From an uncultured Candidatus Saccharibacteria bacterium (GTDB lineage Bacteria; Patescibacteriota; Minisyncoccia; UBA6257; UBA9933), in the NCBI GenBank assembly GCA_964428615.1, contig CAYRXZ010000001.1, positions 2,334 through 66,333 of the forward strand: a stretch of 64,000 nt of DNA. The letters run 5' to 3'. The translations under genes and the position numbers were made by a program. The stretch's first letter is position 1; each line of letters starts with the position of its first letter. The notes under the pieces are model-generated. The model saw nothing but the letters and a program-made list of their open reading frames with translations, did not search any database and was not told where the DNA came from. This document shows positions 2,498-59,968 of this stretch, piece by piece.

Positions 2498-3748
2498 CTA
2501 ATTCTCCAGTTTTCCAATCTCTAATAATCTATTATATTTTATCATTCTTTCCGGCGCCGATGGGGCGCCGGCTTTTATCCCAAAAGCTCCGGTTCCCACC
2601 GCTAAGTCAGCTATAAAATCATCCATTGTCTCGCCGCTTCTGTGAGAAATGACTGCTTGCCAATTATTCTCATATGCCAGTTTAACTACATTTAAAGTTT
2701 CTGTTAAGGTACCGATTTGATTCGGCTTTATTAAAATCGTGTTGCCGGATTTTTTTTCTATCGCGGTTTTTAACCTTTCAAAATTAGTTGTTGTTAAATC
2801 GTCTGTTATCACCAATAATCCGTGTAAATCCGTGTTCGGGTCCGTGTAAATCCGTGTTGTGAGAGACGCGAACGAATCAAATGACTCTTCGGAAAAAGGA
2901 TCCTCTATCGAAAAAATTTTATATGCTTCAATAATTCTATAATAATAATTTCTCAATTCTTCTGCTGAATATTCTTTTTTGCCCAGAATATAAACTCCCC
3001 CTTGTTTGTCGTTTGTCGTTTGTAGTTTATAAAATTGCGTTGCTGCCGTATCCAAGCCGATTTTCAATGGATAATTATGCTTCAAAATCAAATCCGCCAT
3101 AATCTCAAGCGCTTGTTCATTATTCTCAAAGGGGCACGAAAATCCCGCTTCATCACCAAACATAATATTTTCTTTACTAAATTTTTCCTCAAGAGATTCT
3201 CCTAATTTTCTGTAAAATTCTTGCCCCAAACCTAATGCCAAATTAAAGTCTTGTGTGTCGGGAATTATCTGAAATTCCTGAAAATTCAATTTTGATTCCG
3301 GATGCGTGGCATGCGCCCCGCCATTTATAACATTAAAAAGGGGTCGCGTGCTTCTTGAAACCTGAAACTTAGAATCTGAAATTTTATTTATATATTCAAA
3401 CAATTCAACGCCTTCTTTTTTTGCTTTTGACCGCGCAAACGCCAAAGACAAAACCAAAGTCAAGTTTCCGCCAAGATTACTCTTATTCTGGGTGCCGTCT
3501 AAATAAATCAAAAAATCATCAAAATCTTTTTGATCTTTAAATTCTCTGCCTAAAATGCCGAGCTTTGTCTTATTAAATTTTTCAACAGCAAGTTGTGGTT
3601 CCAACACAAACGCTTCATGCGCCCCCCGGCTTTTTCCGCTTGGAGCCGAGGCTATTGCTGAAAATTCACCGGCTTTTAATTCCGCTTCCAATGTATCTTT
3701 CCCCCGCGAATCCTGAATTATTTTTAAATTAATATCAATAATTTTCAT
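2498..3748 (-). CDS. eno: Enolase (phosphopyruvate hydratase)
   Basis: 416 aa; C-terminal SHRSGETMDDFIADLAVG and KYNRLLEIG enolase signatures; contains short in-frame tandem repeat inserts. Confidence 0.9.
   Translation of the reverse strand: MKIIDINLKIIQDSRGKDTLEAELKAGEFSAIASAPSGKSRGAHEAFVLEPQLAVEKFNKTKLGILGREFKDQKDFDDFLIYLDGTQNKSNLGGNLTLVLSLAFARSKAKKEGVELFEYINKISDSKFQVSRSTRPLFNVINGGAHATHPESKLNFQEFQIIPDTQDFNLALGLGQEFYRKLGESLEEKFSKENIMFGDEAGFSCPFENNEQALEIMADLILKHNYPLKIGLDTAATQFYKLQTTNDKQGGVYILGKKEYSAEELRNYYYRIIEAYKIFSIEDPFSEESFDSFASLTTRIYTDPNTDLHGLLVITDDLTTTNFERLKTAIEKKSGNTILIKPNQIGTLTETLNVVKLAYENNWQAVISHRSGETMDDFIADLAVGTGAFGIKAGAPSAPERMIKYNRLLEIGKLEN
3003..3030. repeat. Heptamer tandem repeat (CGTTTGT)x3+1 inside eno
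   Basis: cgtttgt cgtttgt cgtttgt agtttat; encodes QTTNDKQ segment in-frame. Confidence 0.6.
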
Positions 3749-4584: not shown

Positions 4585-7011
4585 TTATTGCTTCTTCAAT
4601 TTCTTCTCCTTTTCGTAAACTTTCAAAGTCGTTTTTATCACCGTGTCCGGGTTTAAAGACATACTCTCAATGCCTTGTTCAACCAAAAACTCGGCAAAAT
4701 CGGGATAATCAGACGGAGCTTGGCCACAAATACCAATATATTTCTTGCGTTTGCGGCATTTTTTGATTACTTCGACGATTAATTTCTTAACTGATTCATC
4801 TTTTTCATTTGCTACGTCGCGAACCAATTCCGAAGCGTCACGATCTATACCAACTGTTAATTGAGTTAAATCATTTGAACCGATACTCATGCCATCAAAA
4901 ATATTTAAAAATTCGTCCGCTAAAACAACATTTGAAGGAATTTCGCACATGACAAAAATATTAAGATTTTTGTCACCCCGAGCTTGCCGAAGGGTTTTCT
5001 TTATTATTTCAATAACTTTCTTGCCTTCTTCCACTGTCCGGCAAAACGGCACCATTACCGCCACATTATCCAATTTCATTTCTTCACGAACTTTTTTAAT
5101 TGCTTTAAGCTCTAATACAAAAGCCGAAGCAAAATTCGGGTGATAATAACGCGAAGCGCCACGCCAGCCAATCATTGGATTTTCTTCTTGTGGCTCATAA
5201 ATTTCTCCGCCAATTAAAGTACAGTATTCATTTGTTTTAAAATCCGAAAACCTTACAATAACTTGTTTTGGATAAAACGCCGCGGCGATTTTTGCAATTC
5301 CATAAGCAAGCTTATCAATATAAAATTGTTTTTTATCTATGTAGCCTATTGTTTTTTTATCTACAAGTTTTTTTACCGCCACAGGAAGTTTTTTATAATT
5401 TATTAAAGCATTTGGATGAATACCGATATCACTGGCGATAATAAATTCTTCTCTTGCCAGCCCGACACCATCATTCGGCAAAAGCGATTTTTCAAAAGCT
5501 GTATCCGAAGTAGCGATATTCATCATTATTTTGGTCTTCGGTTTAGGAAATTTTTTAACGTTATTTTCTATCACTTTAAAATTCAAAGCTCCATCGTAAA
5601 TTACGCCCTCGCTGGAAGTGGTGTCTACGGTTATAGTCTGACCCGTTTTTATCTTTTTTGTGGCATTGCCAGAGCCTACAACGCAAGGAATGCCCAATTC
5701 ACGCGAAACTATAGCTGCATGTGAAGTTCGTCCGCCTTTATCTGTAACAATCGCCGAAGCGATTTTCATAATTGGCTCCCAATCCGGGTCTGTCATATCA
5801 GTTATTAAAACTTCGCCCGCTTTAAACTGGCTTATTTGTTTAGCGTCTAAAATTATCCGCGCTTTGCCAACGGCAATTTTATTCCCTACTGATGCTCCTT
5901 TTACAATAACCCTTTTAATTTGTCTCTTATTGCTCGTCACTAATCGATATTCTTTTATTTTTGAAAAATCCCGGCGGCTATGAACTGTTTCTGGTCTGGC
6001 TTGAACAATAAAAAGTTCTCCTGTTTTGCCGTCTTTCGCCCATTCCATATCCATTGGCGTCCATTTTTTCCGCAAAGTCGTGTAATGTTTTTCTATTATC
6101 ATTGCCCACTCCGCCAATTTCAAAATTTCCGCTTCACTTAAAATAAATTTATTTTTTTCTTCTATTCCTACGTCTATAACTTTTGTTTTTTTAATACCGC
6201 GACCGGTTGAATAAACCATTTTACGGCTCTTATCGCCAAGCCGTTTATCTATAATTGCCCTAGTCTTTTTGAAAACCAAGAACTCGTCCGGCGTTACTTC
6301 TCCCTGCACAACCATTTCGCCTAAACCCCAAGCGCCGTTTATTAAAACTACATCTGGAAAACCTGACTCCGTATCAAGTGTAAATATTATTCCCGAACAT
6401 CCCAAATCTGAGCGCACCATTTTTTGTACACCCACTGAAAGAGCCATTTTAGTGTAATCAAATCCCTTATCCGCCCTGTAAGAAATCGCCCTATCTGTGA
6501 ACAAAGAAGCAAAAGATTCTTTCACCGCTTGTAAAACTTCTTTTGTGCCGCGAATATTCAAAAATGTTTCGTATTGGCCGGCAAACGACGCATCGGGCGC
6601 GTCTTCTGTTGTCCCGCTGGTACGAACTGCCACATCTGCATTTTTACCATATTCTTTTTCTAATTTTTTATAATTTAAAGCTATTTCTTCTTCAAGTTCT
6701 CTTGGCACATCAACGCTTTTAATCATTTCCCTGATTAATTTTCCACGCCTAGCTAAATCCGGAAGGTTATGGGTATTTAAACCTTTAAGTGTTTCCGCTA
6801 TGAAAACTTCTATTGTTTTGTTTTTGTTTTTAAGTTTTGTATTTTTTAAAAAATACCTATATGCTTCCGCCGTTACCGCGAAACCATCGGGTATATTTAA
6901 ACCTTTCGGTTTTAAATATTGGATCATTTCCCCAAGCGAACCGTTTTTCCCACCCACTTCTAAAACATTTTTAATTCCTACTTCTTTAAATTGTTTTATA
7001 AATTTTTTCAT
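4585..7011 (-). CDS. ppsA: Phosphoenolpyruvate synthase (pyruvate, water dikinase)
   Basis: 808 aa; N-terminal VGGKNGSLGEM like E. coli PpsA, PEP-utilizing mobile domain GGRTSHAAIVSRELGIPCVVG, C-terminal TIM-barrel PEP-binding domain. Confidence 0.85.
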   Translation of the reverse strand: MKKFIKQFKEVGIKNVLEVGGKNGSLGEMIQYLKPKGLNIPDGFAVTAEAYRYFLKNTKLKNKNKTIEVFIAETLKGLNTHNLPDLARRGKLIREMIKSVDVPRELEEEIALNYKKLEKEYGKNADVAVRTSGTTEDAPDASFAGQYETFLNIRGTKEVLQAVKESFASLFTDRAISYRADKGFDYTKMALSVGVQKMVRSDLGCSGIIFTLDTESGFPDVVLINGAWGLGEMVVQGEVTPDEFLVFKKTRAIIDKRLGDKSRKMVYSTGRGIKKTKVIDVGIEEKNKFILSEAEILKLAEWAMIIEKHYTTLRKKWTPMDMEWAKDGKTGELFIVQARPETVHSRRDFSKIKEYRLVTSNKRQIKRVIVKGASVGNKIAVGKARIILDAKQISQFKAGEVLITDMTDPDWEPIMKIASAIVTDKGGRTSHAAIVSRELGIPCVVGSGNATKKIKTGQTITVDTTSSEGVIYDGALNFKVIENNVKKFPKPKTKIMMNIATSDTAFEKSLLPNDGVGLAREEFIIASDIGIHPNALINYKKLPVAVKKLVDKKTIGYIDKKQFYIDKLAYGIAKIAAAFYPKQVIVRFSDFKTNEYCTLIGGEIYEPQEENPMIGWRGASRYYHPNFASAFVLELKAIKKVREEMKLDNVAVMVPFCRTVEEGKKVIEIIKKTLRQARGDKNLNIFVMCEIPSNVVLADEFLNIFDGMSIGSNDLTQLTVGIDRDASELVRDVANEKDESVKKLIVEVIKKCRKRKKYIGICGQAPSDYPDFAEFLVEQGIESMSLNPDTVIKTTLKVYEKEKKLKKQ

Positions 7012-8381
7012 ATTTTTAATATTAACATTAAATCTGATACATTAAAAGTTTTCTTTTCTGTAAAAATTAAATCTCCGGTTTTTTTAAAAAAATCAAAAAC
7101 ATTATGATTTTTAAGATATTTTTCAAAGTTTAATTTCAACTTCTGAGCCTTACTTATTGTCAAAATATCGCCAATTGCGCCCGCAGCCTCGGTATTATCT
7201 TTGCCGTCACTGGCAACGCTCAAAAGAACGTAATTCTGAATTCTAAATTCTGAATTCTGAATTAGCATTTCTAAAACTCCAAGCACCGCCTCCATATTCC
7301 TTCCTCCCTTGCCCGGATTTTTCCCTAAAACAATCGTCGTTTCTCCCCCAGCCACAGCAATGTTTACTTTCCTATAGGAAAGTAAACCAACCAGTGGTAT
7401 TAAGGAATTTTTGGCTTCTCCGTTTAATTTATATGAATAAATTTTCGGCAAAAACCCCAATTTTTTCGCCTTTTTCACCATTGCCATGATGGGCTCGCGG
7501 TTGGAAACAAACAAAATATTTTTGACACTTTTAAAATATTTTTTATCCCCGGTAGTAGAACTTCGTTCGCTACGGGGCTTCGCTTTCGGCGTTTCTATCA
7601 ACAAATTACGCGTAACAGGCGACAATAATCCATATTTTTTCAAAATTTTTTCCGCGTCTTTTTTTGTTGTTTTATCAGGCATTGTCGGACCGGAGGCCAC
7701 CATAGATAAATCTCCGCCTATAACGTCGGAAACTATTAAAGAAATCATTGTTGCCGGATAAGCAATTTTCGCCAGCCCGCCGCCCTTAACTTCGGATAAG
7801 TGCTTTCTTATTGTATTAAGCTCAATTATATTAGCTCCAGCGCTAGTTAATTTACTAAAAATCTCACGTGAAGCTTTTAATTCTTTTTTTGAACCGCAAA
7901 GCAATGCCGAACCGCCCCCGCAAATAAAGGAAATTATTAAATCATCTTTACCGGCTTTTCCCGCCAATTCAATTATTTTTTTTGTGGCTCTCACATTTTG
8001 AAGTGACGGTAGCGGATGCGTACCCGTTAAGAATTCAGAATTTAGAATTAAGAATTTAGAATTTAGGGACGGCTTATTAATATCTAAAGCAATACATTTA
8101 TTCAATTTTTTGCCTAAAATATCTGCCAGTGCCATACTCGCCAAAGCCGAACCCTTACCAATTCCAATGATAAAAACTTTTTTATAATTACCCAAACCTA
8201 TTTCTAATTTTCTGCTTCCCTTCAAGGAAGCAGATTTTATTGTAAGTTTACTGCCGTTCAGCTCTATTTTTCCACCTATTACCTTTTGAATATTTATTGC
8301 ACTATATCCCGCTTCAATAATTTGAAGCGCTTTTTTACGAAGCGGACTTTTCGCTAAATTTTTAAAATTAGTAATTATCAT
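7008..8381 (-). CDS. Glycerate 2-kinase, MOFRL family (DUF4147 + MOFRL domains)
   Basis: 457 aa; motifs GGGSALL, NTIRKHLSEVKGG, SDVIGGDLSMVASGPT, AGGETTIVLGKNPGKGGRNME match Thermotoga-type glycerate kinase; two in-frame heptamer repeat inserts. Confidence 0.7.
   Translation of the reverse strand: MIITNFKNLAKSPLRKKALQIIEAGYSAINIQKVIGGKIELNGSKLTIKSASLKGSRKLEIGLGNYKKVFIIGIGKGSALASMALADILGKKLNKCIALDINKPSLNSKFLILNSEFLTGTHPLPSLQNVRATKKIIELAGKAGKDDLIISFICGGGSALLCGSKKELKASREIFSKLTSAGANIIELNTIRKHLSEVKGGGLAKIAYPATMISLIVSDVIGGDLSMVASGPTMPDKTTKKDAEKILKKYGLLSPVTRNLLIETPKAKPRSERSSTTGDKKYFKSVKNILFVSNREPIMAMVKKAKKLGFLPKIYSYKLNGEAKNSLIPLVGLLSYRKVNIAVAGGETTIVLGKNPGKGGRNMEAVLGVLEMLIQNSEFRIQNYVLLSVASDGKDNTEAAGAIGDILTISKAQKLKLNFEKYLKNHNVFDFFKKTGDLIFTEKKTFNVSDLMLILKI
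7232..7265. repeat. Heptamer tandem repeat (AATTCTR)x5 inside glycerate kinase gene
   Basis: aattctg aattcta aattctg aattctg aattag; encodes IQNSEFRIQN in-frame. Confidence 0.65.
8031..8066. repeat. Heptamer tandem repeat (GAATTYA)x5 inside glycerate kinase gene
   Basis: gaattca gaattta gaattaa gaattta gaattta; encodes LNSKFLILNSEF. Confidence 0.65.
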
Positions 8382-8384
8382 AAA

Positions 8385-11300
8385 TCAAATCTTTTTAATC
8401 CCCGCCCAAATTGAGGAACCATTTATTTTAGTTTCGGCTTCCGCGTCAAATTTATCGGTCCGGTTAAAATAAACATTCTTTGCGGAAATTTTTTCTTTAA
8501 ATTCTTTAATATTCTTTTCTATTGCTGAACGGATTTCTACCGGGACTTCCAGCCATAAATCAATCTTATCTTTCGGCAAAAAACCAGCTTCCTTTCTTAT
8601 ATCCTGCATTGCTCTTGCCATTTCTCTTAATAATCCCTCTGCTTTTAATTCCGGAGTAATTTTTGTGTCCAATTCTATTTCTCCGCCGATTTTCAAATCA
8701 AAAATAATTTTTTTAACATTTATCTCATCTGCCAAAATTCCCAATAATTCTTTTTTATCCTTTAATTCTGAATTCTTAATTCTTAATTCTGAAAGCGGTT
8801 GCCTTACTTTAATTCCTCTATTGCCCCTTAATTCCAAAGCCGCTGAGGCAATTTTTCTAATTTCCACCATTGCCTCAATTAAATCTTTATCTATTAATTT
8901 TTTATCAACCTTCGGCCAATCTTCTAAGTGCACGCTTGCCGCTTGTCGCTTGCCGCTTGTCGCCAAAAAAATTCCCTCTGCCACAAACGGCGCGAATGGC
9001 GCAATAATTTTAGAAAACTCCGACAAAACATATTTTGTTGTTTCTATCGCAGCAAATTTATCACTGTCTTCCAATTTAAACCTTTCACGCGAACGTCGAA
9101 TATACCAAGTTGAAAAATCATCAACGAAACCGCTAAGCGGCCTGACCGCTTTGTCAATTTCATAATTCTCTAACGATTCCGAAACTTCCTGCTTTAATTG
9201 TTCCAACCGGGCAATAATCCATCTATCTAGAACATTTTTATTTGAAGCTTGAAGCTTGAAGCTTGAAGTTTTACTATCGGCGTACATCTCGTAAAATTTA
9301 TAAGTATTCCATAACCGCAATATTGTTTTTTTATAAACTTCATCCACGCCTTTTTCTGAAAAATTCAAATTTTCTCCCGCTACCACGGGAGAAGAAAGCA
9401 AATAAAGCCTCAAACTATCTGCGCCATATTTTGAAACAAGCTCCATTGGGTCAGGATAATTTTTCAATCGTTTGCTCATTTTTTGCCCATTTTCCGCCAA
9501 AATTATGCCATTAACAATAACGTTTTTGTAAGCCGGTTTATCAAACAAAGCTGTTGAGAGAACAAGTAATGTATAGAACCAACCACGGGTTTGGTCCATC
9601 CCCTCAGCGATAAATTCCGCCGGCACCGGAGAAAAATTATTCTTCGGCGTTGAAAACGGAAAATGCGATTGGCCGTAAGGCATTGAACCAGATTCAAACC
9701 AGCAATCAAAAACATCTTCTATTCTTTTCATTTTACTACCGCAACCGCAGATAAATTCCACTTTATCAATATACGGCCTGTGCAAATCAAGCTCAAAATT
9801 TTTATTATGCGGAAATGGAACAAATTTCAAATTTTTTATTTCTCCGGTTTTTATAAAATCTTTTTTATTTTCTCTTATCTTAATCGCCTTTTTGGCGCTT
9901 GCTCCTTCGGCGCCAGCGAAAAGCAGCCAAATCGGATATTCATGACTGATAATTAAAATATTTTTACCGGAATATTTTTTATCAATATCATAAATAAAAT
10001 CTGACATCCTATTTTTTAAATCAGTCAGGTTTTCACCTTTCGGAGCCGGCTTAACGAATTTTTCCTCGTAGGAAGAAAAATGTTCTCCATACTCTTTTAT
10101 TGACTTATTATTTAAATTACCTGTATTGACTTCTCTTAATCTTTTGTCGTAGAAAACCTTTTTAATCCCGAAATGCTTTGCCGCCATTCCCGCAGTTTCT
10201 TTTGTCCGAATAAAATCTGAACTATAAATCAAATCAATATTTTTTATCTTTTTTAGAGTATCAACAATTTCTTTTTTCCCTTTTTCTGTTAGATGGTGAC
10301 TGTTTTTATAATTTGAACTCGCAATACCAAATATATTATTTTCCGCTTGCCCATGCCTCATCACAAAATATTTATTACCCGAAGTTCCCGAATTTTTCTT
10401 TATTTCCTCAACCGAACCGACAACTTTTAATTTTCCGCATTTTTTACATTCCCAGACCGGGAGCGGCGACCCCCAAAAACGGCTTCTTGAAATCGCCCAG
10501 TCTCTCGCGTCTTTAAGCCACTGGCCAAAACGTCCATCTTTCACGTGTGCCGGCAGCCAGCTTATTTTCTGGTTATTTTTTATAAGCTTATCTTTAATCG
10601 CTGTCACCTTCACAAACCAAGAAGATGCCGCGTAATTCAAAAGCGGAGTTTCACAACGCCAGCAATGAGGATATGAGTGGACCACTTTTTCACAATTAAA
10701 AACTAAATTTTTTTCTGAAAGAAATTTTATTATTTTCTCATCGGTTTCTTTTGTATTCTCTCGCGGCTTTGCGCGCAAATTTGTAAAATTTTTAACTTCC
10801 TGTTTTAATTTTCCATTCATTCCGACATGCTGAATAAAAGGCAAATTAAGTTTTTGCCCTAATTCCATATCTTCCGCACCAAAAGCCGGAGCAATATGTA
10901 CAATACCCGTTCCTTCTTCAATATTCACAAAATCCGCCGGATAAATTTTCCATCCGTTTTCACGATCTTTTAATTTTTTATCCTGGCTGAAATAATCAAA
11001 AAGAGGCTTATAATTTTCCCCAACCAATTTATCTCCCTTAAACTTCTCTATAATTTCATACTTTTCTTTTACGGCGCCCAATCTTTCTTCCGCTAAAATA
11101 TATTTTTTGTTATCGAAAGTTTTTATTTTTATATAAGTAATTTTCGGGTTTACCGCCAAAGCCACATTCCCGGGCAAAGTCCAAGATGTCGTTGTCCAAG
11201 CCAAAACAAAAGTTTTCGGCTCGTCAATTAATTCAAATTTCAATGTTATCGCAAAATCTTCAATATTTTTATAGTTCTGGGTAACTTCAAAATTTGAGAG

Positions 11301-11867
11301 TGTTGTTTCACAGCGCGGGCAGATATGCATCGGCTTATAGCCTTTATAAATTAAATTCTTATCATATAAATCTTTAAAAACATGTAAAACTGATTCCATA
11401 TATTCAACATCCATAGTTTTATATGGATTTTTCATATCGACCCAACGACCGATTCTGGGAATCGTTTTTTTCCATTCTGATTCATATTTTAAAACACTGA
11501 TTCTCGCAGCCTCATTGAATTTTTCAACACCAAAATCAATAATGTCTTTTTTGCTTTTCAAGCCCAGTTCTTTTTCGATTTCAAATTCAACCGGTAAACC
11601 ATGGCAATCCCAACCCCATCGCCTTTTAACGCTCTTCCCCTTCATAGTCTGGTAACGAGGAATTGCGTCTTTTATTATTGAAGCTAAAATATGGCCATAA
11701 TGCGGCAAACCATTAGCAAAAGGAGGACCATCGAAAAATCTGTATTCTGCTGACGGTTTACCCTGAGCCTGTCGAAGGGATTTTTCAAAAATATTATTAG
11801 TTTGCCAAAAATTAAGAACTTTTTCTTCAATTTCCGCAGGATTGAAATTTTTAAGATTTTTAAACAT
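8385..11867 (-). CDS. ileS: Isoleucyl-tRNA synthetase with an inserted histidine-phosphatase domain
   Basis: 1160 aa; HIGH-type motif PHYGH, KMSKR motif, zinc-binding CPRC/CWRC, DLHRPYID block; ~210 aa extra domain between WECKKCG and DLHRPYID. Confidence 0.9.
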   Translation of the reverse strand: MFKNLKNFNPAEIEEKVLNFWQTNNIFEKSLRQAQGKPSAEYRFFDGPPFANGLPHYGHILASIIKDAIPRYQTMKGKSVKRRWGWDCHGLPVEFEIEKELGLKSKKDIIDFGVEKFNEAARISVLKYESEWKKTIPRIGRWVDMKNPYKTMDVEYMESVLHVFKDLYDKNLIYKGYKPMHICPRCETTLSNFEVTQNYKNIEDFAITLKFELIDEPKTFVLAWTTTSWTLPGNVALAVNPKITYIKIKTFDNKKYILAEERLGAVKEKYEIIEKFKGDKLVGENYKPLFDYFSQDKKLKDRENGWKIYPADFVNIEEGTGIVHIAPAFGAEDMELGQKLNLPFIQHVGMNGKLKQEVKNFTNLRAKPRENTKETDEKIIKFLSEKNLVFNCEKVVHSYPHCWRCETPLLNYAASSWFVKVTAIKDKLIKNNQKISWLPAHVKDGRFGQWLKDARDWAISRSRFWGSPLPVWECKKCGKLKVVGSVEEIKKNSGTSGNKYFVMRHGQAENNIFGIASSNYKNSHHLTEKGKKEIVDTLKKIKNIDLIYSSDFIRTKETAGMAAKHFGIKKVFYDKRLREVNTGNLNNKSIKEYGEHFSSYEEKFVKPAPKGENLTDLKNRMSDFIYDIDKKYSGKNILIISHEYPIWLLFAGAEGASAKKAIKIRENKKDFIKTGEIKNLKFVPFPHNKNFELDLHRPYIDKVEFICGCGSKMKRIEDVFDCWFESGSMPYGQSHFPFSTPKNNFSPVPAEFIAEGMDQTRGWFYTLLVLSTALFDKPAYKNVIVNGIILAENGQKMSKRLKNYPDPMELVSKYGADSLRLYLLSSPVVAGENLNFSEKGVDEVYKKTILRLWNTYKFYEMYADSKTSSFKLQASNKNVLDRWIIARLEQLKQEVSESLENYEIDKAVRPLSGFVDDFSTWYIRRSRERFKLEDSDKFAAIETTKYVLSEFSKIIAPFAPFVAEGIFLATSGKRQAASVHLEDWPKVDKKLIDKDLIEAMVEIRKIASAALELRGNRGIKVRQPLSELRIKNSELKDKKELLGILADEINVKKIIFDLKIGGEIELDTKITPELKAEGLLREMARAMQDIRKEAGFLPKDKIDLWLEVPVEIRSAIEKNIKEFKEKISAKNVYFNRTDKFDAEAETKINGSSIWAGIKKI
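8763..8793. repeat. Heptamer tandem repeat (WAATTCT)x4 inside ileS
   Basis: taattct gaattct taattct taattct; encodes SELRIKNSEL. Confidence 0.65.
8934..8964. repeat. Heptamer tandem repeat (GCTTGYC)x4 inside ileS
   Basis: gcttgcc gcttgtc gcttgcc gcttgtc gcc; encodes ATSGKRQAAS. Confidence 0.65.
9244..9271. repeat. Heptamer tandem repeat (GAAGCTT)x4 inside ileS
   Basis: gaagctt gaagctt gaagctt gaagttt. Confidence 0.65.
9753..10376 (-). other. Histidine phosphatase (phosphoglycerate-mutase-like, RHG motif) domain inserted within ileS coding sequence
   Basis: Residues ~498-705 of IleRS: VMRHGQAENN (catalytic RHG), IRTKETAGMAA, ILIISHEYPIWLL (second catalytic His) - complete branch-1 histidine phosphatase fold signatures. 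Confidence 0.6.
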
Positions 11868-43670: not shown

Positions 43671-43760
43671 TTTCTAATATTTAATTTCTAAATGTTTTAA
43701 ATTTTAGATTTTATTATTAGAGTTTATTTAGAATTTAGTGCTTAGAATTTAGAATTTTTA
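43671..43760. repeat. ~90-bp intergenic tract of period-7 tandem repeats (TTAGAAT/TTTCTAA family)
   Basis: tttctaa tatttaa tttctaa ... ttagaat ttagtgc ttagaat ttagaat - 7-nt register maintained across the whole cysS-dnaB spacer. Confidence 0.6.
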
Positions 43761-45104: not shown

Positions 45105-45148
45105 AACAAAAGCCCATACTATCATATATGATAATATGGGCTTTTTAT
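45105..45148. terminator. Bidirectional rho-independent terminator (AGCCCATActatcatatatgataaTATGGGCT + T-run)
   Basis: Long hairpin between convergent dnaB (+) and pheT (-). Confidence 0.5.
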
Positions 45149-45178
45149 GTCTTAGGTCTTATTTCTTATATATTTATA

Positions 45179-48277: not shown

Positions 48278-48955
48278 CTAACGTATTTTCTTCAAAAAGG
48301 TCAATCTGTGGATTTTTGAGGAGCCGTGTTTTTTTATCATTTTTATATGCTCTTTTGTGCCATAACCCTTATTTTTTTCAAACCCGTATTGCGAATATTT
48401 TTTATGTAAATTTTTCATCTGTCTGTCCCGGCTCACTTTAGCGATAATTGAGGCAAGCGAAATTGCTGAAATTTTCTCATCGCCTTTTATTATTGTCCTG
48501 GATTTCAGATTCCAAGTTTTAAGTTTTAAGCTTTTCAGATATAGCCCCCCGTCTAAACAAACTTTGCAATTTTTAATTCTAAATTCTGAATTCTTAATTA
48601 AAAGTGTAAACGCTTTTCTCGCCGCCAAGTTCGCAGCTTCAGAAATATTTATTTTATCTATTGCCTTCGGAGAAACGCTTGCTATCGCATACTGTAGGCG
48701 TAATTCTTTTTTAGCGTATTTAAACCAAATCTCGCGCTGACTCGATGTTAATTTTTTAGAATCCCTTAGCTTCGCTAATTTAAAATTTAGAATTAAGGAT
48801 TTAGAATTTTTAGTTTTTTTCTTAATTCTTAATTCTGAATTCTTAATTCTTAATTTAGTCGGAACTGCGGTAGCAGCAACGACTACATTTCCCGCCAGCG
48901 CTCCCCTGCCAACTTCGTCTATCCCAATAATATATTTTTCTTTTTTAGAGGCCAT
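48278..48955 (-). CDS. rnhB: Ribonuclease HII carrying two in-frame heptamer-repeat inserts
   Basis: IGIDEVGRGALAGNVVVAA catalytic start; extra segments LRIKNSELRIKKK and IKNSEFRIKN encoded by heptamer repeats. Confidence 0.8.
   Translation of the reverse strand: MASKKEKYIIGIDEVGRGALAGNVVVAATAVPTKLRIKNSELRIKKKTKNSKSLILNFKLAKLRDSKKLTSSQREIWFKYAKKELRLQYAIASVSPKAIDKINISEAANLAARKAFTLLIKNSEFRIKNCKVCLDGGLYLKSLKLKTWNLKSRTIIKGDEKISAISLASIIAKVSRDRQMKNLHKKYSQYGFEKNKGYGTKEHIKMIKKHGSSKIHRLTFLKKIR
48512..48602. repeat. Two heptamer repeat blocks (YAAGTTT x4; WAATTCT x4) inside rnhB
   Basis: ccaagtt ttaagtt ttaagct tttcaga ... taattct aaattct gaattct taattaa. Confidence 0.6.
48776..48860. repeat. Heptamer repeat blocks (AATTTAG/AATTAAG and TCTTAAT x5) inside rnhB
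   Basis: aatttag aattaag gatttag aattttt ... tcttaat tcttaat tctgaat tcttaat tcttaat. Confidence 0.6.
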
Positions 48956-56865: not shown

Positions 56866-58032
56866 TTATATAATAACTCCGCCGCCGAGAAGGGCGCCTT
56901 TTTTGTTATAGAATACGGCTGATTGGCCAGGAGCGACGAACTTAACTGGTTTAATAAATAGTAAATAGTAATTAGTAATTGGGAGTTTTTTGTTTTCCCT
57001 TGTTACTTGTTGCTTATTACTTATTATTAATTCCGCTTTTTCAAGCAGCTGGCGATAGCGGACTCGTGCCATGACTAAAATTTTTGATTTTTTACCTTTT
57101 AGTTTTTCGTCCGATAAATTAACATTTATCAATTCAACTTCTTTTTTATACAATGCCGGGTTTTCATTCCCCTCGACGAGAACAAGAGTGTTTGTTTTTT
57201 TATTTTTCTCGGCAACGTAATACGGCTGTCTGTCTTTTTGAAATTTAATTCGCCGACTGGCGGAAGGAAAATTTATTTTTGCATTTATGTGCCTTTGGCC
57301 GATTGTATAAAATTGAACACCGCTGTGTTCGCCAATTATCTTTCCTTCAAAATCCAAAATTTTTCCTTTTTTCTTGGAAATATATTTTTTCAAAAAATCT
57401 TCAATTTTTATTTTCCCTAAAAAGCACACACCTTGAGAATCTTTTTTTTCGGCGGTTATCAAGCCGGCGGCTTTGGCGATTTTTCGGACTTGCGGTTTCA
57501 AATAATCACCTATCGGAAATAAACAGTGAGCTAATTGCTCCGCTGTTAAAGCCCAAAGAAAATATGATTGGTCTTTATTTTTATCTTTGGCTTGATAAAG
57601 ATTTTTTGATTTTAATTTCACATAATGTCCTGTTGCCACATAATCGGCTCCGAATTTTAAAGCGCGTTCCAAAAACAGACCGAATTTTATTTCTTTATTA
57701 CACATTATATCGGGATTTGGAGTTGAGCCTTTTTTATAACCATCTATCATATATTTAATAACTTTCTTTTTATATTGTTTACGAAAATCCCAAATGTAAA
57801 ACGGGATTTTAAGTTTTTGGGCAACCAAAGCAGCATCGCGGCTATCTTTTTTAGTACAGCCATCTTTTGAATCGTAGCAACGCATAAAAACACCAACTAC
57901 GTCATAGCCTTTCTTTTTAAGCAGTAATGCTGCGACGCTGGAGTCCACGCCACCACTCATACCGACAAAAACCCTTCTACTCCGCTCAGGGTAAACCTTT
58001 TTCTTTTTAAGCTTTTTCAACTCTTTCAACAT
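56866..58032 (-). CDS. mnmA: tRNA-specific 2-thiouridylase MnmA
   Basis: 388 aa; PP-loop VGMSGGVDSSVAALLLK, catalytic Cys region; contains heptamer-repeat-encoded segment. Confidence 0.85.
   Translation of the reverse strand: MLKELKKLKKKKVYPERSRRVFVGMSGGVDSSVAALLLKKKGYDVVGVFMRCYDSKDGCTKKDSRDAALVAQKLKIPFYIWDFRKQYKKKVIKYMIDGYKKGSTPNPDIMCNKEIKFGLFLERALKFGADYVATGHYVKLKSKNLYQAKDKNKDQSYFLWALTAEQLAHCLFPIGDYLKPQVRKIAKAAGLITAEKKDSQGVCFLGKIKIEDFLKKYISKKKGKILDFEGKIIGEHSGVQFYTIGQRHINAKINFPSASRRIKFQKDRQPYYVAEKNKKTNTLVLVEGNENPALYKKEVELINVNLSDEKLKGKKSKILVMARVRYRQLLEKAELIISNKQQVTRENKKLPITNYYLLFIKPVKFVAPGQSAVFYNKKGALLGGGVII
56955..57026. repeat. Heptamer repeat blocks (TAAATAG x4; MCTTRTT x4) inside mnmA
   Basis: taaatag taaatag taattag taattgg ... 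ccttgtt acttgtt gcttatt acttatt. Confidence 0.6.
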
Positions 58033-58576: not shown

Positions 58577-58618
58577 TATAGTATTTTATATCTAGTATTT
58601 AGTATTTTGTATAAAAAT

Positions 58619-59968
58619 TTAAAACAATTTTTTCTGAATCTCCAAATCTTTTTTCTCTTGCTCGCTGAAAATTTTTACTTTACCATATTCACCATCAAAG
58701 CCCGGCTCTACTTTTAATTTCTTTTCACGAACCGCTACTATTCCTTTTACAACTTTTTCATCGGCGATGGTTCTTAATTCTTCAACGCTTAAATCAATTA
58801 AAATTTTTAATTCCGAACCGAATGTTTTAATTAATTTAATATATTCTTCTTTGACTTTCTTTGTAGCAACCCCCATACCATAAACCTCGGCAATAATTTC
58901 GTCAAGCGGAATCAAACTATAATATGGGACCCTATTTTCATAAGTATTATAAAATTTTTCTTTTTCAAGTTTTATTTCCGGTCTATCGGCTAATTTATCA
59001 ATCCTATTCATTGTGCCAATAGTCAATTTTTTCCCGCATTTTGGGCAAATACTATTATGCTTCTTTGTTTCTTCTGGAGGAAAAACTACACCGCAAGCCC
59101 TGTGGCCATCAAAGTGATATCTGCCCTCTTCGGGAAAAAACTCTATTGTCGCTACAAACGCTGATTTATGCTGATTTGACGCTGATTTTCGCTGGTTAGG
59201 AGCGCCGCTTTTTATCGCTTTAATAATTCCATTATATGACAACTCTGTGTTAAAAATATTCGCTTCTCTGCCTATTCTTGGGGCTGAATGAGAATCGGAA
59301 TTTGATATCAAAGCGATATTGTCTAATTTTGAAAGCCGCCAATTCATAGCCGGATCGCTTGAAAGCCCGGTTTCAATGGCAAAAATGTTTTTAGTATATT
59401 CACCAAAACATTCTTCAATTGAATCAAAGCCCGACATTGAACCAAAAACGGAAAACCACGGGGTCCAAGCGTGCGCCGGAATTATTACCGCCAAAGGATT
59501 GGCGTTAAAAACTATTTTCGCCAGCTCACGGCAATCGAGCCCTAAAATCGGCCGGCCATCTGATTTTAGATTGCCTATCCAACCAAGTTGCGTATTAATT
59601 TTTTCAACAGTTTCAAAATCAGGAGCAAAAAGCAAATTGTGAACTCTATAAACTCTTTTCTGGCCCGTGGACGGAGATTGACGAGAATAAATACTCGAAA
59701 CTTCGGCGGTTAAAACAAATCTCGTTTCTGCCAAAGTTCCTTTTATAGTCGGGCGTTTGTATTGCTGTTTTAATTTAAAAAGTCCAGGCTCGGCCAACTC
59801 TAATCTTTCTTTAAGTTCGCCAAACCATTTCGGATGAGTAAAATCTCCGGTCGCCATTACCAAAATTCCTTTATCATCCGCCCAGCGGTCAAGCTCCTCT
59901 AAATCCATATTTGGAGAAGTAGCACGAGAATATTTTGAGTGAATATGTAAGTCGGCGATAAATTTCAT
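58619..59968 (-). CDS. Endonuclease Q-like PHP-domain nuclease (TIGR00375 family) with C-terminal zinc finger
   Basis: 449 aa; LHIHSKYSRATS PHP start, IPAHAWTPW, GLSSDPAM, SNSDSHSAPRIGREAN, CPKCGKKL, LIDLSVEEL, C-terminal GFDGEYGKVKI match Pyrococcus EndoQ blocks. Confidence 0.75.
   Translation of the reverse strand: MKFIADLHIHSKYSRATSPNMDLEELDRWADDKGILVMATGDFTHPKWFGELKERLELAEPGLFKLKQQYKRPTIKGTLAETRFVLTAEVSSIYSRQSPSTGQKRVYRVHNLLFAPDFETVEKINTQLGWIGNLKSDGRPILGLDCRELAKIVFNANPLAVIIPAHAWTPWFSVFGSMSGFDSIEECFGEYTKNIFAIETGLSSDPAMNWRLSKLDNIALISNSDSHSAPRIGREANIFNTELSYNGIIKAIKSGAPNQRKSASNQHKSAFVATIEFFPEEGRYHFDGHRACGVVFPPEETKKHNSICPKCGKKLTIGTMNRIDKLADRPEIKLEKEKFYNTYENRVPYYSLIPLDEIIAEVYGMGVATKKVKEEYIKLIKTFGSELKILIDLSVEELRTIADEKVVKGIVAVREKKLKVEPGFDGEYGKVKIFSEQEKKDLEIQKKLF

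Follow-up and report, generated by a model that had tools for sequence, protein, structure and literature searches.

In-frame heptanucleotide repeat arrays recur at orthologous positions of housekeeping genes in bacteria of the Candidate Phyla Radiation

Heptanucleotide arrays in the window

The window, a stretch of 64,000 nucleotides from an uncultured Candidatus Saccharibacteria bacterium (contig CAYRXZ010000001.1, assembly GCA_964428615.1), is AT-rich (35.8% GC) and closely packed with genes, the majority on the minus strand; homologues bear the labels Wolfebacteria, Paceibacterota or Patescibacteria, which places the organism in the Candidate Phyla Radiation. The elements considered here are short tandem arrays of 7-nt units lying within open reading frames (ORFs), above all those of a glycerate 2-kinase, with Protein Data Bank (PDB) relatives of the same family in 2b8n and 1x3l, and of isoleucyl-tRNA synthetase (IleRS, encoded by ileS). 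The five period-7 arrays of these two genes have 3.9-5.3 copies with 87-100% matches according to Tandem Repeats Finder (TRF):

7008-8381, minus strand: glycerate 2-kinase gene (DUF4147 + MOFRL), 457 aa, two arrays (ORF list; Pfam DUF4147 3e-57, MOFRL 5e-22)
7232-7263, minus strand: kinase array GK-B, AATTCTG, 4.6 copies; sense AATTCAGAATTCAGAATTTAGAATTCAGAATT, translated LIQNSEFRIQNY, aa 373-384 (TRF, scan)
8030-8066, minus strand: kinase array GK-A, AGAATTT, 5.3 copies; sense CTAAATTCTAAATTCTTAATTCTAAATTCTGAATTCT, translated LNSKFLILNSEFL, aa 106-118 (TRF, codon view)
8385-11867, minus strand: IleRS gene (type 2, eukaryote-like), 1160 aa, three arrays (ORF list, Pfam, PDB matches)
8764-8793, minus strand: IleRS array III, AATTCTG, 4.3 copies; sense AGAATTAAGAATTAAGAATTCAGAATT, translated SELRIKNSEL, aa 1025-1035 (TRF)
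8933-8963, minus strand: IleRS array II, CGCTTGC, 4.4 copies; sense GCGACAAGCGGCAAGCGACAAGCGGCAAGCG, translated ATSGKRQAAS, aa 969-979 (TRF)
9242-9268, minus strand: IleRS array I, TTGAAGC, sense CTTCAAG in 3.9 copies, translated TSSFKLQASN, aa 867-876 (TRF, 100% matching)

A preliminary description of the window had reported at least five heptamer blocks in these genes, and the five it named are all present and in frame (TRF, ORF list). The peptides it quoted, IQNSEFRIQN, LNSKFLILNSEFL, SELRIKNSEL, ATSGKRQAAS and TSSFKLQASN, are likewise right. Both potential in-frame TAA codons of GK-A read TTA instead, IleRS array II matches at 100% at period 14, and IleRS array I is perfect because its unit, CTTCAAG, is free of stops.

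Arrays were located with a lag-match score scan, in which a strong array has a score of at least 12 and the expectation comes from first-order Markov resamples. At this score the window holds eight period-7 arrays against 0.07 expected, and zero or one array at each of the other periods from 4 to 15, the multiple 14 excepted, so that the period-specific enrichment proposed earlier is borne out. The comparison set consisted of 45 loci with kinase relatives (665 kb), 39 of them Wolfebacteria/Paceibacterota-like and six outgroup. At a score of at least 12 these related loci contain 85 arrays of period 7 and 0-8 for every other period within 4-12; the six outgroup loci (Saccharimonadia or higher-GC, 87 kb) contain no period-7 arrays at this score. 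Perfect lag-7 runs tell the same story in the related loci, with 72 runs of 10-13 nt observed against 4.4 expected and 23 runs of at least 14 nt against none. No similar excess was found there at other lags, the runner-up being lag 6 (16 against 4.4).

Short-read assemblers can collapse or expand short repeats, and the arrays could in principle reflect such an artefact, or chance. There is practically no prospect that this is the case, and we regard the explanation as refuted. The enrichment in the window is more than 100-fold above resampled sequence, all host ORFs are intact, and about 40 metagenome-assembled genomes, independent of one another, have arrays at orthologous sites. The concern over assembly raised in the preliminary description is answered by run SRR8437217, whose independent assembly in Logan is 100% identical over 2,678 nt spanning the arrays of rnhB. 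In addition, a 99%-identical kinase variant in the ENA has both arrays at unchanged length, with one substitution inside an array.

Further arrays lie elsewhere in the window:

3004-3028, minus strand: enolase array, sense AAACTACAAACGACAAACGACAAAC, translated KLQTTNDKQ (TRF, scan, codon view)
2490-2525: AGAATT-type repeat across the enolase stop codon (TRF)
48514-48534, 48575-48599, 48777-48809 and 48819-48855, minus strand: four arrays in rnhB (48278-48955), with the peptides, in order, KLRIKNSELRIK, NSKSLILNFKL, LIKNSEFRIKN and LKSLKLKTWNLK (TRF, translation, Pfam RNase_HII)
56951-57026, minus strand: two arrays in mnmA (56866-58032), translated ISNKQQVT and PITNYYLLF (TRF, Pfam, codon view)
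43695-43757: non-coding arrays TTTTAAA and ATTTAGA/AGAATTT in the cysS-dnaB spacer (TRF, six-frame view, Pfam of flanking genes)
45145-45169: non-coding array TTATGTC, 3.6 copies (TRF, six-frame view)
58579-58612: non-coding array TAGTATT, 4.9 copies, in the spacer of two genes (TRF, six-frame view)

The AGAATT-type unit does recur, as had been stated, in rnhB (48575-48599 and 48819-48855) and in the cysS-dnaB spacer (43726-43757). Relative to the closest relative, locus L046 (identity 82% for IleRS, 89% for PpsA, 77% for the kinase and 79% for enolase), the repeat at 2490-2525 provides the enolase TAG and ~5 additional C-terminal residues. The segment with the internal enolase array is missing from L046, and the same site holds an unrelated unit in L006. 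The arrays of the window also show higher-order structure at periods 14 and 21 (TRF).

Some other features of the same genes deserve mention. An antisense ORF of 166 aa (8665-9165, plus strand) runs over the ileS arrays and stays open partly through arrays that are stop-free in this orientation; in all likelihood it is not a gene. A complete His_Phos_1 (phosphoglycerate-mutase-like) domain is inserted in the middle of IleRS (aa 501-663; 9879-10367, minus strand), an architecture found also in L046. Two in-frame arrays have period 10, one in enolase (2817-2857, ACACGGATTT type, translated RIYTDPNTDLHG) and one in the ORF at 58619-59968 (59158-59194, AAATCAGCGT type, translated QRKSASNQHKSAF). 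Peptides related to these period-10 arrays, RINADK and INADKNADKRR, fill hot-spot loops of L046.

Orthologous hot spots, patched stops and length classes

The window and the related loci together gave a set of 93 arrays, of 2.5-6 copies and 20-40 nt, at a density of ~1 per 7 kb. Inside ORFs of at least 100 aa lie 88 of the 93; such ORFs make up 93% of the sequence, and the arrays are therefore neither enriched nor depleted in coding DNA and are as dense inside essential genes as outside. The preliminary description pictured scattered insertions. Mapped onto orthologous protein alignments, the arrays instead fall on a few loop positions shared across the clade (site numbers refer to stop-to-stop ORFs). 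In the kinase these hot spots lie at aa ~105 (the GK-A site, with arrays in 22-23 genomes), ~250, ~353 and ~373 (GK-B; orthologous arrays in 10 genomes). IleRS has hot spots at ~875 (array I, 10-11 genomes), ~978 (array II, 6 genomes) and ~1036 (array III, the same alignment columns being filled by arrays in 15-16 genomes), with minor sites near the N-terminus. PpsA (phosphoenolpyruvate synthase) follows with ~67, ~368 and ~685, and enolase with ~247. Among 118 kinase homologues, hot-spot peptides match themselves at lag 7 with a score of 0.18-0.24, compared with about 0.05 at other lags. The proteins of the clade are only 50-60% identical, yet the same sites remain occupied by arrays. A very recent one-off expansion, which had been offered as one way to account for the blocks, is unlikely, as most of the 118 kinase homologues hold arrays at the same sites, that of GK-A included.

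Several comparisons place these sites in loops. HMMER alignments to solved structures leave both kinase sites gapped against 2b8n, GK-B being a 5-residue insertion, and all three IleRS sites gapped against the yeast and human enzymes; the position of array III is an indel against both, and the loop of array I is variable relative to eukaryotic IleRS. An AlphaFold2 (AF2) model of the kinase built on the 118-sequence alignment (predicted local distance difference test (pLDDT) 82, predicted TM-score (pTM) 0.83) shows site A (aa 100-118) running from a loop through a short helix into a strand, of which it covers the start, and site B as the end of a helix and the next loop before a strand (aa about 374-383, the loop itself being 376-383). 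Judged by alignment and model, the arrays occupy predicted surface loops between secondary-structure elements, in keeping with the location that the preliminary description had suggested checking. Almost all indels between the window and L046 sit at hot-spot positions.

Two points about length need revision. Each block had been thought to keep the frame by its own length and to add 7-12 residues. The arrays of the kinase and IleRS, at 27-37 nt, do not themselves run in multiples of 3 or 21, and the frame is kept by the net length of the loop, not by that of the array. The net gain is 2-7 residues relative to array-free orthologues, the outgroup or solved structures. Since this is small against the 9-13 codons that each array spans, the ancestral loop has been partly overwritten.

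The reading frame has left a clear mark on the arrays. Three successive 7-nt units are read in all phases, so that any cyclic stop in the unit enters the frame once per 21 nt. Perfect arrays of at least four copies always consist of stop-free units, for example ATACAAA, AAAATCA, ACAAACG and CTTCAAG. Units with a cyclic TAA, TAG or TGA occur in 44 arrays, and in these all potential in-frame stops (41 of 41) are repaired, mostly by one base. Of the 63 places at which these arrays depart from purity, 42 fall in would-be stop codons, which account for 9.4% of positions (binomial p=3e-28), and this patching explains the R, Y and W positions in the units given in the preliminary description. Apart from the patches, purity is 97-98%, with a residual impurity of 1.6-2.7% per nt, despite differences of 20-40% between genomes in the host proteins. 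The sense strand of the arrays is 52% A and 8% G, and the encoded peptides, rich in K, N, Q, S, T, I, L and E, suit exposed loops. From their sequence, the arrays appear to be translated and filtered by selection. The idea that selection for frame-compatible arrays underlies their presence in housekeeping genes agrees with these data; they would be tolerated there because selection holds them in frame and stop-free.

A single dispersed repeat family, as previously envisaged, is not what the units reveal. The 93 arrays represent 52 different canonical units, and these follow genome composition, as with CCGTCAA in a locus of 49% GC (L028). The commonest unit family, AGAATTN, contributes 15 of the 93 arrays at no fewer than 7 different sites. 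Units at different sites of one genome do not resemble each other significantly more than units of different genomes do when neighbouring same-site arrays are left out (p = 0.10-0.16); with these included, a lower score threshold gives a weakly significant likeness (p about 0.01). A genome-specific template or ectopic spread was considered and rejected (p=0.56 for within-genome likeness at a score of at least 12). Two units resemble each other more when they come from the same site than when they come from different sites (2.05 versus 2.60 mismatches, with at most one mismatch in 27% versus 11% of pairs). Alleles of kinase site A such as LNSKFLILNSEFL, KLEIRNSKLEI, LQTTNYKLQT and KLKIENWKLKI are dispersed across the kinase family, although the nearest neighbour has the same allele in 28 of 81 cases, where 9.4 were expected. 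We also rejected a gradual drift of the unit under vertical descent, as unit distance is uncorrelated with protein identity and the alleles are not tree-like. A restricted set of permitted units may have been reached repeatedly, and array alleles may have been exchanged laterally.

Loop lengths form classes. At IleRS site II they cluster at 28-30, 35-36 and 42 aa, and at kinase site ~353 they are 14, 21 and 28, so that at these two sites the classes step by 7 residues, that is 21 nt or three units. Tandem duplications of 14 nt and 21 nt overlie 7-nt arrays in 41 of 46 and 9 of 10 cases, respectively. The length polymorphism foreseen in the preliminary description holds to the extent that arrays coincide with length differences between orthologues; within the population, as represented by the one near-identical strain, none was seen. 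We read turnover as fast compared with species divergence and slow compared with strain divergence.

Comparison with known repeat systems

Heptanucleotide repeats are described as the most abundant class of long simple sequence repeats (SSRs) in many prokaryotes, and slippage related to the polymerase footprint has already been proposed for them (Mrazek 2007, as reported in PMC4679880 and PMC4692102); non-triplet long repeats are reported to be rare in coding regions (Mrazek 2007, as reported in PMC4679880). As far as the class is characterized in those accounts (Mrazek, Guo and Shah 2007), the arrays resemble it in their few, head-to-tail 7-nt units, in the over-representation of period 7 and its dominance over neighbouring periods, in the diversity of the units and in slippage as the presumed engine. 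They differ in lying for ~95% inside ORFs, including those of essential genes, and at orthologous loops, whereas non-triplet members of the class are reported to be mostly non-coding. Regarding copy number, 7-residue length classes separate species, but the one 99%-identical strain shows no change.

The analogy to cyanobacterial short tandemly repeated repetitive (STRR) sequences and other heptanucleotide repeats drawn in the preliminary description is apt, in that the STRR of Calothrix and Nostoc and related intergenic arrays are also 7-nt tandem arrays dispersed over many loci. In those systems each genome favours one unit or a few, and the arrays are predominantly intergenic, often with 4-26 copies. 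Here, by contrast, there are many units, none of them genome-specific or of high copy number, in arrays of few copies that are in frame and stop-patched. The GGGNATC heptamer repeats of Xanthomonas and Nostoc show an excess in intergenic DNA and a deficit in coding DNA (PMC4692102), and TAACTGA heptamer arrays are found in Beggiatoaceae (PMC4679880). A metagenome scan with four AGAATTN units gave matches in at least 120 contigs. The 80 contigs listed among these range from 23% to 71% GC and hold 178 period-7 arrays versus 3-20 for other periods; their AGAATTN arrays are up to 128 nt long, with other heptamer arrays alongside, and 50 of the 80 contigs have the array outside ORFs of at least 100 aa. 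These long, mostly non-ORF arrays resemble STRR. On low-GC contigs similar to those of the Candidate Phyla Radiation (CPR), AGAATTN is found in frame in genes for GluRS, LeuRS, MetH, RuvC, DNA polymerase III delta', a GT1 glycosyltransferase and the glycerate kinase. One metagenome MetH (L104:2002-5070) combines an inserted DUF559 endonuclease-like domain with an in-frame AGAATTC array (EIQNSEFRIQNY). Non-coding heptamer arrays adjoin tRNA genes at L032:17036-17077 and L035:396-428, and a single base separates the L032 unit, TAACTAA, from TAACTGA, the repeat found in marine Beggiatoaceae.

Rickettsia palindromic elements are in-frame inserts of about 150 bp, similar to miniature inverted-repeat transposable elements, with a conserved sequence and encoded peptide (PMC10969869). 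In both cases a reduced genome tolerates repetitive DNA in frame within unrelated housekeeping genes, at places that the protein fold allows. The arrays differ in being 20-40 nt long, tandem and built from many unrelated units, with no sign of transposition. A conserved hairpin sequence, which the arrays lack, is shared only by separate GC-rich hairpin mini-inserts of the window, the closer analogue of the Rickettsia elements. These inserts are translated in frame in IleRS at aa ~30 (~11750-11790, CCCTTCGACAGGCTCAGGG, read as SLRQAQGKP) and in ppsA (4585-7011; CCCTTCGGCAAGCTCGGGG, read as TLRQARGD), and a CCCCG...CGGGG hairpin at kinase aa 267-278 (~7550-7590) encodes AKPRSERSSTTG, a segment with pLDDT below 50 in the AF2 model. 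The mini-inserts form a second class, resembling Rickettsia palindromic elements or small dispersed repeats.

Phase-variable contingency loci, such as the 7-bp repeats at Haemophilus hmw1A and hmw2A, are found in promoters or in genes for surface or restriction-modification functions, and sister strains differ at them. Like them, the arrays have a non-triplet unit inside an ORF, where slippage by one unit shifts frame or spacing. The hosts here (the glycerate kinase gene, ileS, eno, rnhB, mnmA and ppsA), however, encode essential enzymes, not dispensable environment-facing functions, and neither frame-shifted alleles nor differences in copy number turned up, the close relatives compared being a single strain pair.

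Origin of the arrays and their meaning

The combined results suggest a model in which slippage-prone heptanucleotide SSRs are filtered by selection in coding loops, and we consider this the probable explanation. A process at the level of DNA would create 7-nt runs and continually re-homogenize them, most probably slipped-strand mispairing in replication or repair that favours a 7-nt step. Arrays would persist only in surface loops that tolerate indels, with the net length restricted to multiples of three, and viable changes would mostly be 21-nt steps (three units, 7 residues). Selection would exclude in-frame stop codons and require the sense strand to yield hydrophilic peptides, hence the A-rich units. 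As the genomes are gene-dense, arrays would survive within genes, and an overwritten loop, being a needed piece of the protein, would keep its site occupied. The unit sequence would drift and be replaced while the site stays filled, giving orthologous hot spots with lineage-specific units. We infer slippage as the engine, as well as concerted evolution and neutrality.

Some observations do not sit easily with this model. A single +7 step in an essential single-copy gene is a frameshift, so that the model does not account for the way in which an array starts, nor does it supply a cause for the preference for 7. Heptanucleotide repeats known elsewhere are under-represented in coding DNA (PMC4692102). 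As the proteins diverge, units at a given site become no less alike (Spearman -0.02). At kinase site A, array alleles identical over 37 nt, the window's own among them, turn up in backbones with only 65-85% identity, and the ten nearest backbones of the window kinase hold seven other alleles; simple vertical descent with drift would not predict such sharing between distant backbones. Some sites have length classes 2 or 5 residues apart, not 7. No slippage step was observed, copy number did not change in the sole near-identical pair (99% identity), and there was no frameshifted orthologue at any array among 46 kinase, 28 IleRS and 22 PpsA orthologues. Candidates for frame-shifted genes at arrays proved to be gene ends entering intergenic arrays, or antisense ORFs, and were rejected.

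The arrays might instead be spread by tiny mobile hairpin elements, or be their footprints or landing pads, or the AGAATTN array might itself be a spreading cassette. Elhai and colleagues are said to have described in 2008 small hairpin elements that nest in cyanobacterial heptamer repeats, and there are three cases of nesting here. A GC-rich hairpin of 21-22 nt (CCTGCCTTGCCGGCAGGCAGG family) lies within arrays of different units in three genomes and two genes (L001:2482-2502, L004:1074-1094 and L037:6717-6737), with the 7-nt phase kept across it in L001 and L004. Eleven-residue inserts nested in the site-A array of about 20 of the 118 kinase homologues point the same way, as do the frequency of AGAATTN among the arrays, its long arrays in contigs of widely differing GC content among those listed, and the identical alleles in distantly related backbones. 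Yet the 52 unit types have no conserved flanks, the flanks of shared alleles have diverged as much as the remaining gene, and, as stated above, units at different sites of one genome are not significantly alike once neighbouring arrays are left out. No transposase turned up, although no search was aimed at transposases. GC-rich islands within 30 nt of arrays are not enriched (20 against 29 expected), on which ground arrays as footprints of GC-rich hairpin elements were rejected; the nesting then follows if the loops that tolerate one insert type are also the only ones to tolerate the other, a simpler account than a mobile link. Altogether, a mobile origin seems unlikely. The CCTGCCTTGCCGGCAGGCAGG hairpin family and its variants occur also on the minus strand in L008, L023 and L033.

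A selected function, be it a frameshift switch, a tunable loop length or periodic mRNA or DNA sites for a heptamer-spaced binder, is very unlikely. It would fit the occupation of sites across a clade of such diverged proteins, the conservation of some array alleles in DNA beyond that of the host gene, and the inherently frame-shifting unit, and CspB of B. subtilis reportedly binds heptamer direct repeats with one protein per heptamer (PMC4679880). In essential genes such as ileS, eno, rnhB and mnmA, however, on/off switching would be lethal, and neither a frameshifted allele in the orthologues examined nor a change of copy number in the near-identical strain was seen. The units are also too diverse for a sequence-specific binder, and no known RNA family matches at the arrays (Rfam). 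Of seven arrays tested for hairpin potential, GK-B alone stood out, with a clear z-score (-3.6), and a general tendency of the arrays to form hairpins or cruciforms was rejected. It is hardly credible that 7-residue, heptad-like peptides were selected or duplicated, leaving the DNA period as a by-product. The lag-7 self-match of the hot-spot peptides would agree with this, and part of GK-A is a beta strand that is present also in the Thermotoga enzyme. However, a 21-nt duplication gives no cause for three identical 7-nt units per 21 nt, 21-nt tandem repeats without 7-nt substructure are not enriched (one case), and the same arrays occur in non-coding spacers. The finding of 14- and 21-nt duplications almost only on top of 7-nt arrays excludes an origin in 7-residue duplication at the protein level.

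A bolder reading holds that Wolfebacteria-type bacteria of the CPR possess an active enzymatic process that writes and re-homogenizes 7-nt arrays, the loops being fast-evolving cassettes inside essential genes. Such a process might possibly be coupled to the 21-nt hairpin mini-element, its cassettes would be exchanged between distant lineages or converge in them, and it would perhaps operate also in cyanobacteria, Beggiatoaceae and other carriers of STRR-like arrays. We think this distinctly unlikely and favour slippage filtered by selection.

Heptanucleotide repeats as the dominant long class, STRR-type arrays and in-frame repetitive inserts in Rickettsia are all known already. Literature on CPR taxa and heptamers yielded no published description of in-frame heptamer arrays in CPR bacteria. 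What appears to be undescribed is the combination of dense 7-nt arrays in essential CPR genes, conserved loops with diverging units, and a stop-patched architecture quantised in steps of 21 nt. Practical work on CPR proteins is affected too, as the array loops will mislead sequence alignment, phylogenetic inference and structure prediction. Peptides such as ELRIKNSEL, LNSKFLILNSEF and KLEIRNSKLEI are markers of the repeat process. One would expect coding DNA to be purged of non-triplet repeats; here they are equally dense inside and outside essential genes and occupy the same loops throughout the clade. A repeat type normally confined between genes can thus live inside proteins and alter their length. 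Patched in-frame stops, length changes quantised by 21 nt and A-rich sense strands together make a clean signature of selection reconciling a 7-nt mutational process with a 3-nt code. The arrays offer a natural system in which to ask why period 7 dominates long prokaryotic repeats, and how the dynamics of repeats act on the length of proteins in ultra-small genomes.

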